A stretch of DNA of 22,338 bases from Candidatus Helarchaeota ASGARD archaeon Hel_GB_B (GTDB lineage Archaea > Asgardarchaeota > Lokiarchaeia > Helarchaeales > HEL-GB-B), in NCBI GenBank assembly GCA_005191425.1, contig SUPR01000060.1, positions 1-22,338 of the forward strand, in the 5' to 3' direction. A model generated the notes under the pieces. That model was not told where the DNA came from, ran no database searches, and was given only the letters and a program-made list of their open reading frames with translations. Positions 4,461 through 20,896 of this stretch are shown piece by piece. A program made the position numbers and the translations under genes. Every line of letters begins with the position of its first letter. Within the stretch, counting starts at the first letter, position 1.

Positions 4461-6023
4461 ATGAAAATTCAAGAAATTAATGTAATTAAAAAGGTAAATT
4501 TTAAGTCTAAGTATATAAAATTTGCATTATGTTATCCAAATATTTATAGAGCAGGTATTTCAAATTATGCAATTCAATTGATTTATCGATTGATCAATCA
4601 AGATAAGAATTTTAAATGTGAAAGGTTTTTTTTCGAAAAAAATAAAGAACCATTATCTGTTGAAAGCCAAACTCCTTTAAGGGAGTTTGATGTAATTGGT
4701 TTTACACTTCAATTTGAATTGGACTATTTAAATATAATAAATATGTTAAATAACGCAAAAATTCCTATTTTATCAGAAAATAGAAAAAGACCACTTTTAA
4801 TTGCAGGTGGTCCTTGTGCTTTAGAAAACCCAATTCCTTTAAAGAATATTTTTGATCTTTTTATTTTAGGAAACATTGAACCAATTTTTGATGACCTTAT
4901 TCAGTTTATAGAAGATTATTTAAGATCAAATTTAAAGCCAAAATCAAAATATGATAATATTGACGGCTTTTATTTTCCACTAAAAAATAAGCAAATAGTA
5001 AAAAAAACTACAATAAAAGATTTAAATTCTTCTTTTCATGCTATTCAACAAGTAATACCAATAAATTATAAAGAGAATAAAAATTTAGGACTGGGAAAAT
5101 CTATATTAATTGAATGTACTCGAGGTTGTAAAGGAAAATGCAACTTTTGTTTAATAGGATGGCAAAATAATCCATATAGAGAACGGTCGTTCCCTAGACT
5201 TAAAGAAATTATAGATGAATGCATTAGTGTTAATCCGATTAAAAAAATTTCATTAATTGGATCTGGAATTTCATATCATTCTAAATTGAAGGATATTGTG
5301 TGGTATATAGCAAATTTAGGTTTAAATTTATCAATCCCATCTCTTAGAGCAGATAAATTTGATGAAGAACTGGCAGAAGCTCTATATAAAGCAAATTTAA
5401 AACAGATCACTTTTGCTCCAGAAACGGGGTCTGAGAGATTGAGAAAATTGATAAATAAGAACATTAAAGATGAAGATATTTTACAATCGATACAAAATGC
5501 ACTGAATTATGGAATTAATAAATTTAAATTATATTTTATGATTGATTTACCAACTGAAAATAACGAAGATCTAGTAGCTATTTGTAATTTAATAGATAAT
5601 ATTATTAAAGAAGGCGTTAGATATAGAGATTTATCGATTTCTATTAATAATTTTATTCCCAAGCCACATACACCATTTCAATGGTTTGAGATCTCTAATT
5701 TAGAGATTAGACGAAATAAAATAAAATTTCTAGAAAAAGAAATTAGAAAAAAAAGGAAAATAAAAGTTTCTTTTTCAGATCCGAAATGGGGACAAATTCA
5801 AACATTATTTTCAAGAGGTGATGAAAAAACAGGATATTTATTATATAAAACGAAGGGATATGGTTCAAATTTAGGAGCAATTCGTAGAATTATGAGTGAA
5901 ATGCAGACATCAATAAATGATTTTAATAAAAAATTAAATATAAATGAAGAATTGCCATGGAATTTTATTGACGTTGGTATAAATAAAAAGATATTAACCA
6001 AAATTTGGAATAAAATATTTTAA
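4461..6023 (+). CDS. Radical SAM protein with N-terminal B12-binding-like domain (TIGR03960/YgiQ-like group)
   Basis: 520 aa. It has the CX3CX2C motif in ECTRGCKGKCNFC, N-terminal ALCYPNIYRAGISN / FDVIGFTLQFELDY / IAGGPCALENP, then SLRAD, TFAPETGSERLR, KLYFMIDLPTE and FIPKPHTPFQW, all typical of this family. Confidence 0.88.
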   Translation: MKIQEINVIKKVNFKSKYIKFALCYPNIYRAGISNYAIQLIYRLINQDKNFKCERFFFEKNKEPLSVESQTPLREFDVIGFTLQFELDYLNIINMLNNAKIPILSENRKRPLLIAGGPCALENPIPLKNIFDLFILGNIEPIFDDLIQFIEDYLRSNLKPKSKYDNIDGFYFPLKNKQIVKKTTIKDLNSSFHAIQQVIPINYKENKNLGLGKSILIECTRGCKGKCNFCLIGWQNNPYRERSFPRLKEIIDECISVNPIKKISLIGSGISYHSKLKDIVWYIANLGLNLSIPSLRADKFDEELAEALYKANLKQITFAPETGSERLRKLINKNIKDEDILQSIQNALNYGINKFKLYFMIDLPTENNEDLVAICNLIDNIIKEGVRYRDLSISINNFIPKPHTPFQWFEISNLEIRRNKIKFLEKEIRKKRKIKVSFSDPKWGQIQTLFSRGDEKTGYLLYKTKGYGSNLGAIRRIMSEMQTSINDFNKKLNINEELPWNFIDVGINKKILTKIWNKIF

Positions 6024-16698: not shown

Positions 16699-17616
16699 CT
16701 ATTCGATTAAACCTAAAATCAAACTTATTAATGCCATCCTAACGAGTAGACCATAATAAGGTTGTTTAAAATATTTAGCATGTTTGGTATTATCAACTTC
16801 ATAAGCAATTTCATCTAACCTGGGCAAAGGGTGCATGATTATAAAAGATTCTTTTACATTTTTTATAGTTGATAAATCTATTTTATAAGAGCCTTTCAAT
16901 TTTAAATATTCGGTAGGGTCAGGAAATCGTTCTTTTTGAATTCTTGTGACATAAAGTACATCTAAGTCGTTAATCACGTCCATAACATCTTTAAACTCTT
17001 TATATTGAATATTTTTTTCATTAAGATAATTTAATACTTCCTTGTTCATTTTTAAAGATGGAGGAGAAATAAAATTTAAATCACAATCATACAGACTGAG
17101 GGCATACGTCAAACTTTTAACGGTCCTGCCATATTTTAAATCACCTAAAATTCCAATATTGAGGCCGTTGATATCTTTATATTCTTTTTTAATAGTCAAT
17201 AAGTCCAATAATGCTTGAGTAGGATGTTCTTTTGTCCCGCAGCCTGCGCTAATAATAGGAACTGGGCTATTCTCTGCAGCTAGCATATCAGCGCCTTCTA
17301 ATGGATGTCGAATTACAATTATGTCGCAATAATTGCTTACACATCTTATTGTATCTGTTAAATTTTCACCTTTAGTTTTTGATGAAGTTTTGGGGTCTGA
17401 AAAACCAATTACATTTCCACCCAGTCTATACATTGCCGATGAAAAACTCATTTGTGTCCTGGTAGATGGTTCATAAAATAGAGAACCAAGAATTTTGTTT
17501 TTTGCAATATCAGTGCCCGAATGTATTATATCTTCCATTTTTTCTGCGGTTTTTAAAATATATTCGATTTGCTTCTTAGAGAAATTTTTTATTGATATAA
17601 AGTGGCTATTTTTCAA
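16699..17616 (-). CDS. pyrB: Aspartate carbamoyltransferase catalytic subunit
   Basis: 305 aa, TTG start. FYEPSTRT..SF, KGENLTDT, IRHP, HPTQALLD, GDLKYGRTVKSL, LYVTRIQKERF and MHPLPR are all present. Confidence 0.97.
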   Translation of the reverse strand: MKNSHFISIKNFSKKQIEYILKTAEKMEDIIHSGTDIAKNKILGSLFYEPSTRTQMSFSSAMYRLGGNVIGFSDPKTSSKTKGENLTDTIRCVSNYCDIIVIRHPLEGADMLAAENSPVPIISAGCGTKEHPTQALLDLLTIKKEYKDINGLNIGILGDLKYGRTVKSLTYALSLYDCDLNFISPPSLKMNKEVLNYLNEKNIQYKEFKDVMDVINDLDVLYVTRIQKERFPDPTEYLKLKGSYKIDLSTIKNVKESFIIMHPLPRLDEIAYEVDNTKHAKYFKQPYYGLLVRMALISLILGLIE

Positions 17617-18336
17617 TTTTAATCCCTAAATCTCTAGTTTATATTTTATTATGATTTAAAATTAAATAAAGATATCTATAATTAAAAAAAGGAGAATTAA
17701 AGTTAACAAAAGAATTATTAATCAAAAAAATTATCATTTTTTAAAAAATGTCAGTATTTTTATCATTTTTTTTCTTATGTTGAGTGGAAGGAATGTTGAA
17801 TATCCTTTTTTTGTACCAATATAATTTCATTTTTGATGAGTTTATCCTCAATCTCAATCGCCTTTTTTATTAAAAAATATTGATAATTTAATAAAATTTT
17901 TTTTAGTTCTACTTAAAAATATTTTGATTCAAAAGCTGTATTAGATAAACAATAAATATCACATTTCTAAACATTTAAACTAATAACTACTATTTTGTTA
18001 TTGTTTTAAAAATTCTGCAAAATATTTGGAGAATATTGGTCAAAATTTGACATCTAAATTTTTTATAATAACTATTTTGCCTTATATTTTATATTAACAA
18101 AAAAATTACTTTAAGCTTTTTTATTGTATTTAATAATTATTCCAATATCAATGCTTTTTTTTAATATTATCTTTGGTCTAATCTAATTCTAAGTAATTTC
18201 CTATTAATTTCTGATATTATTATTTATAATTATTTTTAGCTGCTATTTCTTCATATTTATCGCAGTTCATTATCTGTTTCTTCCAAATTACTATCAGTTT
18301 GTCAAGTTGGGGTGTGAATTATAGGAAGACCGATAA

Positions 18337-18372
18337 AAATCAATAATAAAATAAAAAATTAAAATGAACAAA
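18337..18372 (-). terminator. Putative archaeal oligo-T terminator after the HTH-ATP-cone-NrdD-like gene
   Basis: The minus strand reads TTTGTTCATTTTAATTTTTTATTTTATTATTGATTTTT directly after the stop. The AT-rich background weakens this call. Confidence 0.35.
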
Positions 18373-20502
18373 TTAAGGACACTTTTTAACAAATTTGAAA
18401 TACCCAATATCTTTTTGGCAAATCCACTTTAATAAATTAAATAATTCGTCAATATCTTCATTACAAATGGGCACAATTAATCGATGACCACCTTTTAATA
18501 ATTTCTGGAATTTGGACTCATATTTAATAATTTCTTTAATTGAAAGATTAGAATTAATAAAATTAGATTCATGATATTTTTGGAAATTTTTATAATCTGT
18601 AAAAGCATCGTCTTTTTCAAATTTTAATTTGTCTAATTTAACCAGATTTTCGGACCATTTACCACTTATAGCTTGTCTAAGGTTTAGATTATAATTAAAA
18701 GTTTCATTTTTTTCATTAATTAAATCGTTCATATATTTTAGTACTTCCTCAACAAATTTCAATTTATCATTAAAATCTGCTTCAGGAGATAGAAAAATAT
18801 TTGCACATTCAAAAATTCCCAAATAACTGATAGAAATTGTAGACTTCGCTATATTAAAATAATATTTATTGTTAACCAGATAGTTAAAAAATGGCAAATT
18901 ACGGTAATCAAATATATTTTTTCTGATAACATTAATTTTTTCCTGTAAAGCTACAAGACATTTTTCTATTCTCTCATTTATCAAATTGTAGAATTTAGGG
19001 ATGATTTTTTTCGATTCTATGGCGATTCTGGGCATATTTAATATGACCCAATCAAGATTTCCACATGCAGTATAGTCATTATTTAAGTCCTTAAGCCACC
19101 TATTTTCTATTCGTTCTAATGAATCAGTATAAGATACATTTTCATTTTGCCAAGTAGGTGAAGTATTAATAAAATTAATTTCACCCCATTTTCTGACGAC
19201 TTTTATTAAATATTCAAGAATCGGTTTATGATTTAAATTATTTAATAGTTCTTTATTAATTTTAAAAATTTGACGGGGAGTAGAAACAGGACTTTTTTTG
19301 TTTACCCCTTCATATAAGATCTCTAAATTTATTTCAAGAATCTTATCTAGTTGGTCGTCATAATCGCTATATGTTTTTGAAACGCTATTATCAATTTCAT
19401 CGATGTTTAAATTATTAAAAAATGGTGGGATTTCTAAATCAAATTGTAAATCAGCAGAAATTAATTGCCCACCTCTTGAAGAAAAACTATTAGAAATATC
19501 AGTATAAAAAGTTAACAAACTCTTTTTGATTTTTTTCTCGTCCAAGTTCTTAATGAATGGTAATAAGAAAATATTAAAAGAATCAATTACTTGATTTCCT
19601 GAAACAAAAATTTGAGACAAATTTAGTAAATGAAAGATTAGGTTAAAAGCTCCAGCCAAATCTTTAGGTTTATGGATGAGTAAATTATTTTTGTTATAAT
19701 CATATTTTAGGCCATCTTTTAAAAACCAACGAATATCGTGATGAAGTGAATTTACTCGGAGAATAAAATAATTTGCATTAGGGATATAAAATTCGCCAGA
19801 TAAATACCCATCTGCGACTTTATGGTCTAAAATATTTAGTAATAAATATTGTTCCATAACTGCATCGCCAGCAATTTTATGGACAGTTTCGGGGTTAAAA
19901 TTTTCATTTATAGATTTTTCCCGGTTAAGCATGACAGTAATATCATAAGGAGGTAGTCCCAATCGAGTTAATGAATGACGATAATCCTCATATCCTTTTT
20001 CAATTAAAATAAAATTAACGGCTTCTCTTATTAGAGGTGCAGTTAAATATTTTATATTTGCCTTAAACAAGCGTTCCTCAGTTTCATTTGCGATTTCTTT
20101 AGCTAAATCTTCAGGCACAGATGCCTCTTTAGTAAGAGACTGGATAATTTTAGTTTTATCAAAATGTTCAATTGTATAACCTGAAGTTCTGACAGGTATA
20201 TAGGAATCTACTCGTTCAATATCAATTAAAGTCCATAGAAATTCTACTACTTTTTCACCGATTGTTGTTAATTGATATCCTTCCTCGGGACCACCCTTTA
20301 TTAACCGAGCTTTTCGTAATTCTCGTAAATGATATCCAAACCTTCCGGCATCTTGGGATGGATTTAATCCTCTCTCTTCCATTATTTCTGTAAAAGATAA
20401 TGGATTTTTCCGGCTCAATAATTTTAGAATTTCAGCCCTAACATCATTAGAAATCGCACTTAATATTTTCTGAGAGCTTACAATATTATTAGATTTGTCC
20501 AT
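18373..20502 (-). CDS. Winged-HTH (ArsR-like) + ATP-cone + degenerate class III ribonucleotide reductase (NrdD-like) fusion; probable pseudo-enzyme regulator
   Basis: 709 aa. The wHTH is ISNDVRAEILKLL...SFTEIM...AGRFGYHLRELRKARLI....GYQLTTIG. The ATP-cone is VRTSGYTIEHFDKTKIIQSL...TAPLIRE. NrdD barrel motifs are TRLGLPPYD, GNQVIDSFNIFLLPF, GNLDWVILNMPRIA, ISYLGIFE and IGYF. No C-terminal Zn ribbon or R-x-x-G-Y glycyl loop is present. Confidence 0.85.
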   Translation of the reverse strand: MDKSNNIVSSQKILSAISNDVRAEILKLLSRKNPLSFTEIMEERGLNPSQDAGRFGYHLRELRKARLIKGGPEEGYQLTTIGEKVVEFLWTLIDIERVDSYIPVRTSGYTIEHFDKTKIIQSLTKEASVPEDLAKEIANETEERLFKANIKYLTAPLIREAVNFILIEKGYEDYRHSLTRLGLPPYDITVMLNREKSINENFNPETVHKIAGDAVMEQYLLLNILDHKVADGYLSGEFYIPNANYFILRVNSLHHDIRWFLKDGLKYDYNKNNLLIHKPKDLAGAFNLIFHLLNLSQIFVSGNQVIDSFNIFLLPFIKNLDEKKIKKSLLTFYTDISNSFSSRGGQLISADLQFDLEIPPFFNNLNIDEIDNSVSKTYSDYDDQLDKILEINLEILYEGVNKKSPVSTPRQIFKINKELLNNLNHKPILEYLIKVVRKWGEINFINTSPTWQNENVSYTDSLERIENRWLKDLNNDYTACGNLDWVILNMPRIAIESKKIIPKFYNLINERIEKCLVALQEKINVIRKNIFDYRNLPFFNYLVNNKYYFNIAKSTISISYLGIFECANIFLSPEADFNDKLKFVEEVLKYMNDLINEKNETFNYNLNLRQAISGKWSENLVKLDKLKFEKDDAFTDYKNFQKYHESNFINSNLSIKEIIKYESKFQKLLKGGHRLIVPICNEDIDELFNLLKWICQKDIGYFKFVKKCP

Positions 20503-20711: not shown

Positions 20712-20767
20712 ATGGATATACCTCTAATGGGAAGATGGTCTAGCTTGGCTATGATTCCGGTTTCGGG

Positions 20768-20784
20768 ACATATAAAAGCGGAAC
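20768..20784 (+). other. tRNA intron 1 (canonical 37/38, 17 nt)
   Basis: Central BHB helix TTCG(32-35)/CGGA(20779-82) with 3-nt bulges GG|A and AC|A; the outer helix is minimal. Confidence 0.82.
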
Positions 20785-20793
20785 AACCGGTGA

Positions 20794-20823
20794 ATTCACT
20801 GAGAATATATCTCTGGAGCTGAA
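20794..20823 (+). other. tRNA intron 2 (non-canonical, variable loop 46/47, 30 nt)
   Basis: Helix CGGT/GCTG (2 WC + 2 GU), bulges GA|A and AA|T, and intron hairpin TTCA..GAGA/TCTC.TGGA. The flanking exon helix is relaxed. Removal restores a TGATC variable loop. Confidence 0.72.
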
Positions 20824-20836
20824 TCGAGGGTTCAAA

Positions 20837-20865
20837 AATTAAAGTCGTGTTGACTTAATTGAAAT
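20837..20865 (+). other. tRNA intron 3 (non-canonical, T-loop 59/60, 29 nt)
   Basis: Strict BHB: the T-stem as lower helix, central TTCA/TGAA, bulges AA|A and AT|T, and upper helix ATTAA-GTC/GAC-TTAAT. Removal restores the TTCAAAT T-loop. Confidence 0.87.
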
Positions 20866-20896
20866 TCCCTCTCTTCCCATTACATAAGGTGGAGCA

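Follow-up and report, generated by a model that had tools for sequence, protein, structure and literature searches.

The DNA analysed here, called the window in the following, is a stretch of 22,338 nucleotides (contig SUPR01000060.1, positions 1 to 22,338, of the assembly GCA_005191425.1 of Candidatus Helarchaeota ASGARD archaeon Hel_GB_B). Its minus strand carries a gene whose product combines a winged helix-turn-helix (wHTH) domain, an ATP-cone and a barrel of the type found in NrdD, the class III ribonucleotide reductase (RNR). The next gene on the same strand is pyrB, and carA and carB are located further on. A first-pass annotation, which was made from the letters of the window and a list of its open reading frames (ORFs), had proposed that an RNR had been converted into a transcription factor. 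In the present analysis it was found that the protein, judged from its sequence, is a catalytically dead NrdD homologue in which all catalytic elements are gone. The features of the gene and its surroundings are compiled in Table 1.

Table 1. Features of the wHTH-cone-NrdD gene and its downstream region (positions refer to the window; aa, amino acids)
Feature	Position	Strand	Basis or remark
Whole gene, wHTH + ATP-cone + pseudo-NrdD	18373..20502	-	709 aa + stop; ORF, Pfam, AlphaFold2 model, Foldseek
ArsR/SmtB-type wHTH, aa 12-88	20239..20469	-	Pfam DUF7347, HTH_5
ATP-cone, aa 104-174	19981..20193	-	Pfam; most conserved part of the family
Cone-to-barrel linker, aa 175-198	19909..19980	-	R175, H176, T179-G182 and P184 invariant; without NxN flap
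NrdD-type 10-stranded barrel, aa 199-706	18385..19908	-	No C-terminal Zn-ribbon/glycyl-radical domain
YIPN (aa 239-242), replacing the HxHD triphosphate-binding motif	19777..19788	-	Alignment; PMC11226230
Ser252 ('RVNS'), replacing the first active-site Cys	19747..19749	-	HMMER and MAFFT alignments
Helices aa 282-297 and 322-337, predicted homodimer interface	19492..19659	-	AlphaFold2 and complex model
Ser461 ('YTDS'), replacing the thiyl-radical Cys	19120..19122	-	Shortened finger loop
Stop codon (18373-18375) and T-rich tract after it	18330..18375	-	Downstream frames inspected
Conserved block of ~65 nt between gene and pyrB	17801..17866	-	Three short-clade genomes
Promoter-like block ATAGATA-nn-TTTATTTAA upstream of pyrB	17660..17679	-	Conserved in three short-clade genomes
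pyrB (aspartate carbamoyltransferase), conserved downstream neighbour, candidate target	16699..17616	-	Window and loci of relatives

Domain architecture and loss of the catalytic elements

The reading frame is open across 709 codons without any interruption. Its N-terminal domain was matched by the Pfam family DUF7347 (PF24038) with 47.8 bits (cut-off 27.6) and by HTH_5 (PF01022) with 28.9 bits (cut-off 22). In addition, the family profile matched CadC chains in the PDB (HMMER, E 4e-4), and the order of the secondary structure elements in the first 100 residues of an AlphaFold2 (AF2) model was compatible with the ArsR/SmtB topology. The motif of the recognition helix, G53-x-F55-x-Y57-H58-L59, is invariant across the family. 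The ATP-cone (PF03477) scored above its gathering score of 25.8 bits, with 30.2 bits in the Pfam search and 33.9 bits in a scan of the genome, while a phmmer comparison of the cone alone with the PDB did not yield a meaningful match. The barrel was recognized by NRDD (PF13597) with 202 bits (cut-off 26.2, E 2e-59). The match spans positions 4-506 of the 562 profile positions, and the approximately 56 final positions, which represent the Zn ribbon and the Gly loop, have no counterpart. The score for the NrdD equivalog TIGR02487 was 198.5 bits and thus under the cut-off of 326.35. The AF2 model, which was built from 101 family sequences, had a mean predicted local distance difference test score (pLDDT) of 88 and a predicted template modelling score (pTM) of 0.75, and its 36 best Foldseek matches in the PDB were all NrdDs (from P. 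copri, S. thermophilus, T. maritima and T4, E 1e-26 to 5e-19). ORF, Pfam and AF2 results therefore agree with the uninterrupted frame, the N-terminal ArsR-like wHTH and the NrdD-type barrel that had been described in the first-pass annotation.

The fate of the catalytic residues was followed with three alignments, i.e., a HMMER alignment of a 30-sequence family profile with NrdDs from the PDB, a MAFFT alignment with E. coli NrdD from NC_000913, and an L-INS-i alignment with 13 canonical NrdDs. All three agreed that Ser252 aligns with C175 of E. coli (the first active-site Cys, C79 in T4) and with the Cys of 'MPYC' in T. maritima, and that Ser461, which lies in the sequence SYTDSLERI, aligns with C384 of E. 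coli, the thiyl Cys of 'PMGC'. Both serines had been assigned to these positions by manual alignment before, and the assignments stood. The HxHD motif, which recognizes the triphosphate of the substrate (PMC11226230), is replaced by YIPN. The NxN flap, which covers the substrate and has been described as being among the most conserved NrdD motifs (PMC11226230), is absent, the finger loop is about 10 residues shorter than in canonical archaeal NrdDs, and the glycyl-radical position (equivalent to G681) is absent. It was verified that neither a CxxC motif nor an R-x-x-G-Y motif is encoded in any of the three frames between the stop codon and pyrB, and that the stop codon is followed by a T-rich tract, as had been noted. 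A cysteine in the sequence 'TACGN' (Cys480) had been named as a possible occupant of the active site. It is present in P0001 and P0002 only and thus is not a conserved substitute. Only 12 of the 49 positions that are invariant in the 13 canonical NrdDs are kept by at least 90% of the family; the NrdD-invariant residues that are kept include N446, N489, D624 and G671-G672. On the basis of these alignments it is proposed that the barrel may no longer bind or reduce a substrate.

As the first-pass annotation had suggested, a dimer was modelled, here for the barrel. A complex prediction with two copies of the barrel (aa 205-700) resulted in a score of 0.34, compared to 0.00 for the best control. 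Of the proteins with solved structures, 21 of 30 that are pairs of one chain reached this mark, and none of 23 that are single chains did. The runs agreed in at least 82% of the contacts, and the pLDDT of the partner was at least 77. The predicted interface is situated on residues 273-295 and 330-339, and the helices involved would correspond in position to alphaA and alphaB of class III enzymes. As NrdD dimers have already been solved, the score may reflect likeness to these structures rather than independent support.

Distribution, phylogeny and selection of the family

The conversion is not restricted to this particular genome. The gene represents one derived branch of a family that occurs in at least 582 species, and most members keep the Zn ribbon. 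A word-indexed search, in which 8000 candidates were scored, retrieved 941 clusters at E values of up to 0.001, and the best matches listed share the architecture of wHTH, cone and NRDD. They were labelled as Helarchaeota, Lokiarchaeota, Odin-, Baldr-, Njord- and Atabeyarchaeia, Bathyarchaeia and Methanomethylicota. When just the first 200 residues were used as the query of an exhaustive phmmer search, 319 clusters at 50% identity (E up to 1e-10) were obtained, and nearly all of them have a length of 580-800 aa. The species number was obtained by counting one genome per species from Asgard archaea, Bathyarchaeia and Methanomethylicia that encodes the same architecture, and it is a lower bound (at least 582 loci).

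The catalytic motifs were surveyed in 116 close cluster representatives and 115 further representatives at 50% identity, about 230 in total. The typical member has 750-770 aa, and the four Zn-ribbon cysteines are kept in 110 of the 116 close representatives. The full set of both cysteines and the radical glycine was not found in a single protein (0/116 and 0/115). Homologues that keep the catalytic residues had been named in the first-pass annotation as an observation that would contradict it. The first Cys is never present, its position being occupied by S, E, D, N, G, T or another residue. The position of the thiyl Cys varies by lineage (T, S, D, N or C), as does that of the Gly (G, A, S or N). 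The thiyl Cys remains only in Bathyarchaeia ('TGCR'), and there the radical Gly is replaced by Ala or Ser. The radical Gly remains mainly in members from Asgard archaea and Methanomethylicia, and there the Cys is gone. A patchwork of remnants of this kind arises when the constraint on a former active site is relaxed. An active intermediate, i.e., a wHTH on a catalytically complete NrdD, was found neither among the canonical NrdDs examined nor among the approximately 230 family members.

A maximum-likelihood tree, calculated for the barrel, placed the family in one clade (support value, SH-aLRT, of 100) apart from the canonical archaeal NrdDs. In all of the latter, P-F-C, Q-C-C-R, the Zn ribbon and S-R-V/I-T-G-Y-Y are retained. 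The identity between the family and canonical NrdDs is about 26-29%. The proteins of 707-716 aa (P0001-P0004 and P0006, 60-68% identity), which were labelled as Helarchaeota and Lokiarchaeota/Promethearchaeota, also formed a clade with a support of 100. This short clade is nested within the Helarchaeota group on a long stem of 0.88 substitutions per site. The homologues P0002, P0003, P0004 and P0006 stop at the same place, and near-identical DNA was present in metagenomes from several studies. The support, the nested position and the long stem indicate that the loss of the C-terminal domain is secondary and clade-wide and does not result from a truncation during assembly.

Selection was quantified by a DNA-level comparison with the two closest genes for which DNA was available (L017 and L018). 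The ratio of nonsynonymous to synonymous substitution rates (dN/dS) was 0.04-0.08 (wHTH), 0.05-0.08 (cone and linker) and 0.10-0.22 (barrel), values that are rough because dS is near saturation. The gene is thus under purifying selection, which is strongest at the wHTH and the cone, in line with the earlier statement that it is maintained and not decaying. When a column was counted as conserved if 90% or more of 101 members agree, the conserved fraction was 46% for the cone, 33% for the linker, 22% for the wHTH and 10% for the barrel, and R105, R159, E160, R175, H176 and R180 are invariant in the family. Sister families from the same class have a barrel that is reduced to a Pfam match of about 50 bits, while their wHTH and cone are still about 35-44% identical. 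This pattern of conservation and selection indicates that the putative DNA-binding head together with the cone is the functional core of the protein. The cone and its counterparts in canonical archaeal NrdDs can be aligned residue by residue (V-R-T-S..E-x-F..K-I..L-[ST]-[AG]-P-L-I-R-E..R..T-R-L-G), and the cone may bind nucleotides.

Several further types of NrdD-related proteins were encountered. One type, with a length of about 605 aa (L127, L128, L130, L131 and L133, in the relatives G016, G007, G019, G013 and G011), consists of an ATP-cone and a truncated barrel and has neither a wHTH nor the Cys pair nor the C-terminal domain. In the tree it branches from within the canonical Loki-type NrdDs, which points to an independent loss of catalysis. 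Other proteins of 650-780 aa (L122, L123 and the matches in the families f4 and f5) have a wHTH and a cone that are about 35-44% identical to those of the studied gene and a barrel so diverged that Pfam NRDD matches just about 150 residues. In addition, two genomes contain canonical nrdD frames of 990-1225 aa (L121 in G002:C170 and L119 in G006:C133). Here the NrdD profile is split in two (positions 1-251 and 259-562), which would fit the insertion of an intein before the finger-loop region.

RNR genes of the genome and the neighbourhood of the gene

The assembly of the genome has a size of 3.54 Mb in 182 contigs, a GC content of 28%, a completeness of 93.7% and a contamination of 4.9%. It contains two canonical nrdD genes, both of which are broken at contig ends. 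The N-terminal pieces with the cone and 'RPFC' are located on contigs C46 (6129-7087) and C14 (8975-9933), the C-terminal pieces with 'CPKCG..SRVTGYY' on contigs C56 (4-129) and C13 (9819-9944) (the set L002-L005). Both copies are cut at the same residue, suggesting that near-identical paralogues or strains broke the assembly. The copy on C46 directly follows the gene for orotidine monophosphate decarboxylase (pyrF). NrdG2 was found above the cut-off on C153, and a gene for an RNR large subunit of the class I/II type (PF02867, adenosylcobalamin-type) on C107. The search for a separate, intact RNR, which had been proposed, was thus answered by two nrdD genes, nrdG and the PF02867 RNR gene. As these true RNR genes exist separately in the genome, the studied protein is not needed as an enzyme. 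The ATP-cone is carried by three genes only, i.e., the studied gene and the two nrdD copies. NrdR was not found in the genome with the ATP-cone scan, and no NrdR model was among the NCBIfam matches of the protein. It had also been claimed that no NrdG activase is nearby, and indeed none is encoded within the window, the radical-SAM gene at 4461-6023 being of another type. Contig C43 of the same genome (L149:584-3118) encodes a fusion of the DUF7347 winged helix with an HdrA/MvhD-like iron-sulfur flavoprotein of 844 aa.

The link to pyrB is kept in the orthologues of the short clade and in a 768-aa form from Helarchaeota with 43% identity, and it is found, together with pyrI, also in Atabeyarchaeia, Odin- and Baldrarchaeia and Bathyarchaeia. 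The usual order in Bathyarchaeia is the regulator gene, a glutaredoxin-like gene (grx), a true nrdD gene, and divergent pyrB and pyrI genes. The carA and carB genes lie outside the conserved neighbourhood. The downstream content was counted for those 54 species loci whose sequence extends 4.5 kb or more downstream of the gene. A true NrdD is encoded in 18 of them, mostly as grx and nrdD immediately after the gene, pyrB is present in 27, and 38 loci have either or both.

The conserved block between the gene and pyrB is kept in the window, L017 and L018 amid diverged DNA with a GC content of 14-24%. It could not be assigned to a known RNA, as no Rfam family was found and only a sub-threshold C/D-box match (E 0.43) was obtained. 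No stable fold was predicted (z -0.68), the genome contains no other copy, and the block does not hold a conserved small ORF. Another block, at 20729-20879 upstream of the gene, is also conserved with L017 and L018, and neither ARAGORN nor Rfam (gathering threshold) called anything in it.

In Bathyarchaeia a motif, TATACAGAATTTTATAC, is conserved upstream of grx-nrdD in about 17 loci. The grx-nrdD promoter of these archaea contains a strongly conserved element, GTGTTAATTT .. TTATACAGAATTTTATAC .. CTAAAAAATTAAATA, about 85 nt upstream of the glutaredoxin-like gene (L024, L043, L051-L054, L056, L059, L060, L066, L068, L069, L076, L082, L090, L092 and L096), which the regulator encoded next to it might use as an operator. 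A regulon could not be defined with TATACAGAATTTTATAC. A complete Bathyarchaeum genome has a single site, the number of near-matches was 8 versus 23 for the reversed control, and no nucleotide genes were found at the other near-matches. Two more candidates for an operator were rejected. The word ATAACTCTT in the pyrB/pyrI spacers of Bathyarchaeia is absent near the regulator gene or nrdD and is probably a promoter element, and CAACCATA, which occurs twice in the pyrB/pyrI spacer of Atabeyarchaeia, is restricted to that spacer.

A putative regulator and its relation to known systems

The protein is regarded here, with a probability of about 0.6, as a non-catalytic descendant of a class III NrdD that would work as a one-component transcription regulator, and the nucleotide-synthesis genes in its neighbourhood indicate that it is probably a nucleotide-sensing one. 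Binding to DNA and to nucleotides, the target genes and the direction of regulation are what we infer. The barrel would serve as a dimerization scaffold, via the two helices that are used by class III RNRs, and two N-terminal ArsR-type heads would bind an operator. The cone between the wHTH and the barrel would read the ATP/dATP pool, and the presence of ATP or dATP in the cone would change the geometry or the oligomeric state of the DNA-binding heads. Shifts of the arrangement or oligomeric state by the ATP-cone have been described for NrdR (PMC9110341) and for the NrdD of P. copri (PMC11226230). The targets would likely be nucleotide-synthesis genes, namely pyrB(-pyrI), which lies directly downstream, in this lineage and the neighbouring grx-nrdD operon in Bathyarchaeia. 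It is tempting to speculate further that the combination of wHTH, cone and pseudo-NrdD might be a nucleotide-pool-sensing master regulator of dNTP (deoxyribonucleoside triphosphate) and pyrimidine synthesis in Asgard and TACK archaea, in which an RNR was recruited as a whole, which does the job of NrdR and additionally controls pyrBI, and in which the catalytic residues were lost stepwise and in a lineage-specific manner after the fusion with the wHTH. This extended proposal is tentative, and we would give it somewhat less than an even chance.

Several observations weigh against a nucleotide-sensing regulator. The cone does not have the textbook K-R pair (V-R-T-S instead of V-x-K-R-D-G), exactly as in canonical archaeal NrdDs, and the designation as an 'intact' ATP-cone in the first-pass annotation can be upheld only in comparison with the latter. 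The fusion of the DUF7347 wHTH to an ordinary-looking HdrA/MvhD-like enzyme means that a wHTH fusion alone is no proof of a dedicated regulator. The second, independent pseudo-NrdD lineage in related genomes has no wHTH, and hence DNA binding need not be the reason why a dead NrdD is kept. The neighbourhood link is missing in some lineages, e.g., in the Lokiarchaeia protein P0043 and at many loci of Methanomethylicia. An exhaustive search for (w,d) words in seven upstream regions, i.e., those of the gene, pyrB, carA, the two nrdD genes, nrdG and the PF02867 RNR gene, with 600 AT-rich windows as the background, did not reveal a common motif; the best p value was about 1e-3 among approximately 1000 candidates, and nothing was significant. 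The grx-nrdD element of Bathyarchaeia occurs once per genome, and no tie to the protein was found. Taken together, the sequence observations of the first-pass annotation were confirmed, and its interpretation is supported in those parts that sequence analysis can test, with nucleotide-modulated DNA binding as the putative defining function.

Four other explanations were considered. The protein could be a wHTH regulator that senses a metal, the redox state or another ligand, with the cone and the barrel forming only a structural scaffold for dimerization. The CadC/ArsR-type metal sensors are the closest relatives of the wHTH with solved structures, and the missing K-R pair would fit as well, but no other part of the family is as conserved as the cone with its invariant residues, which is hard to reconcile with a passive spacer. 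Moreover, the neighbouring genes make nucleotides and are not metal or redox genes, and the NCBIfam metalloregulator model reached only 24.5, under its cut-off of 55, so that a non-nucleotide signal appears unlikely. It is quite improbable that the protein is mainly a non-catalytic partner of the true NrdD, which would form hetero-oligomers and tune it allosterically like the inactive paralogous RNR subunits elsewhere, with the wHTH being secondary. The strongest purifying selection acts on just this wHTH, which is found throughout the family, the divergence from canonical NrdD is deep, and the loops that communicate with the active site of the partner (the NxN flap and the glycyl-radical domain) are gone. 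Nevertheless, the predicted dimer helices are kept, true nrdD genes are present in the same genome and are adjacent in Bathyarchaeia, and the second pseudo-NrdD lineage of relatives, being devoid of a wHTH, shows that dead NrdDs can persist without a domain for DNA binding.

The purifying selection on the barrel, the kept NrdD-invariant residues and the wHTH fusion to the HdrA-like enzyme would all be compatible with a protein that is still an enzyme, having a new non-radical chemistry or a nucleotide-binding task in the barrel and using the wHTH for autoregulation as a 'trigger enzyme'. However, the replacements at the catalytic positions differ by lineage, as expected for relaxed and not for redirected constraint, HxHD and the NxN flap are gone, and the barrels of the sister families dwindle while wHTH and cone persist; a retained enzymatic function is thus very improbable. 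That the gene is a decaying pseudogene or an artefact of assembly or gene calling is hardly credible in view of the 709 open codons, the shared end of the four homologues, dN/dS values far under 1 and the recovery of near-identical DNA in several studies, even though the C-terminal domain is missing and the metagenome-assembled genome is fragmented and partly contaminated. A regulator derived from NrdD is favoured.

In the openly readable literature, subscription-only papers lying outside the scope, we found no report on an NrdD family that bears a wHTH or is non-catalytic. The literature covered included a review on RNR evolution, a 2026 review on glycyl-radical enzymes, and structural papers on P. 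copri NrdD and on NrdR. As far as could be found, an RNR-derived regulator has not been described, and an RNR turned into a regulator would be new. To our knowledge, the control of RNR genes and of the dNTP supply in archaea is largely unknown, and the family offers a candidate regulator that may link the adenine-nucleotide pool to the expression of nrdD and pyrBI. It is widespread, with at least 582 species that include the Asgard relatives of eukaryotes. The names in public records are 'anaerobic ribonucleoside-triphosphate reductase' or 'ArsR family/HTH domain-containing protein', and the use of the former everywhere inflates RNR inventories. The family may also provide a clean case from nature in which a radical enzyme turned into a pseudo-enzyme sensor, with lineages at different stages of decay, i.e., Bathyarchaeia with the thiyl Cys and without the Gly, Asgard archaea and Methanomethylicia with the Gly and without the Cys, and the short clade without the C-terminal domain.

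With the NrdDs of T4, T. maritima, P. copri and S. thermophilus the protein shares the 10-stranded barrel, the N-terminal ATP-cone, which is of the archaeal type, and a predicted dimer on the same helix pair. In contrast to these enzymes, it does not have the first Cys, the thiyl Cys, the Gly-radical loop, the Zn ribbon, the HxHD motif and the NxN flap, it has an additional wHTH, it scores under the equivalog cut-off, and it belongs to a clade of its own. With the ArsR/SmtB proteins (PF01022) and DUF7347 it shares the order alpha1-alpha2-alpha3-alphaR-beta-beta-alpha5 and the 'xHLxxL' signature of the recognition helix, but no metal-site residues were identified, and the domain is fused to the cone and the barrel instead of standing alone. 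Sensors that are derived from enzymes and combined with a helix-turn-helix domain are known, e.g., the archaeal ThiR (derived from ThiN) and RbkR, and the bacterial PyrR and PurR. The concept, the reuse of a metabolic enzyme fold as the sensor of its own pathway, would be the same, and the donor enzyme differs.

The first-pass annotation had called the protein a functional analogue of NrdR, which has been reported to be rare in archaea (PMC9110341). Like NrdR, the protein couples an ATP-cone to a DNA-binding domain, and its gene is linked to RNR genes in Bathyarchaeia. Unlike NrdR, which consists of an N-terminal Zn ribbon and an ATP-cone and has about 150 aa, it has an ArsR-type wHTH and a 500-aa barrel that stems from an enzyme. 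The kinship is via the cone only, and the resemblance would thus be a functional analogy. The dead enzyme with its conserved wHTH and cone and the adjacency to nrdD and pyrBI fit to such an analogy, but the conserved neighbour in this lineage is pyrB and not an RNR gene, so that the comparison holds in part, for a gene that is also, or mainly, linked to pyrBI.

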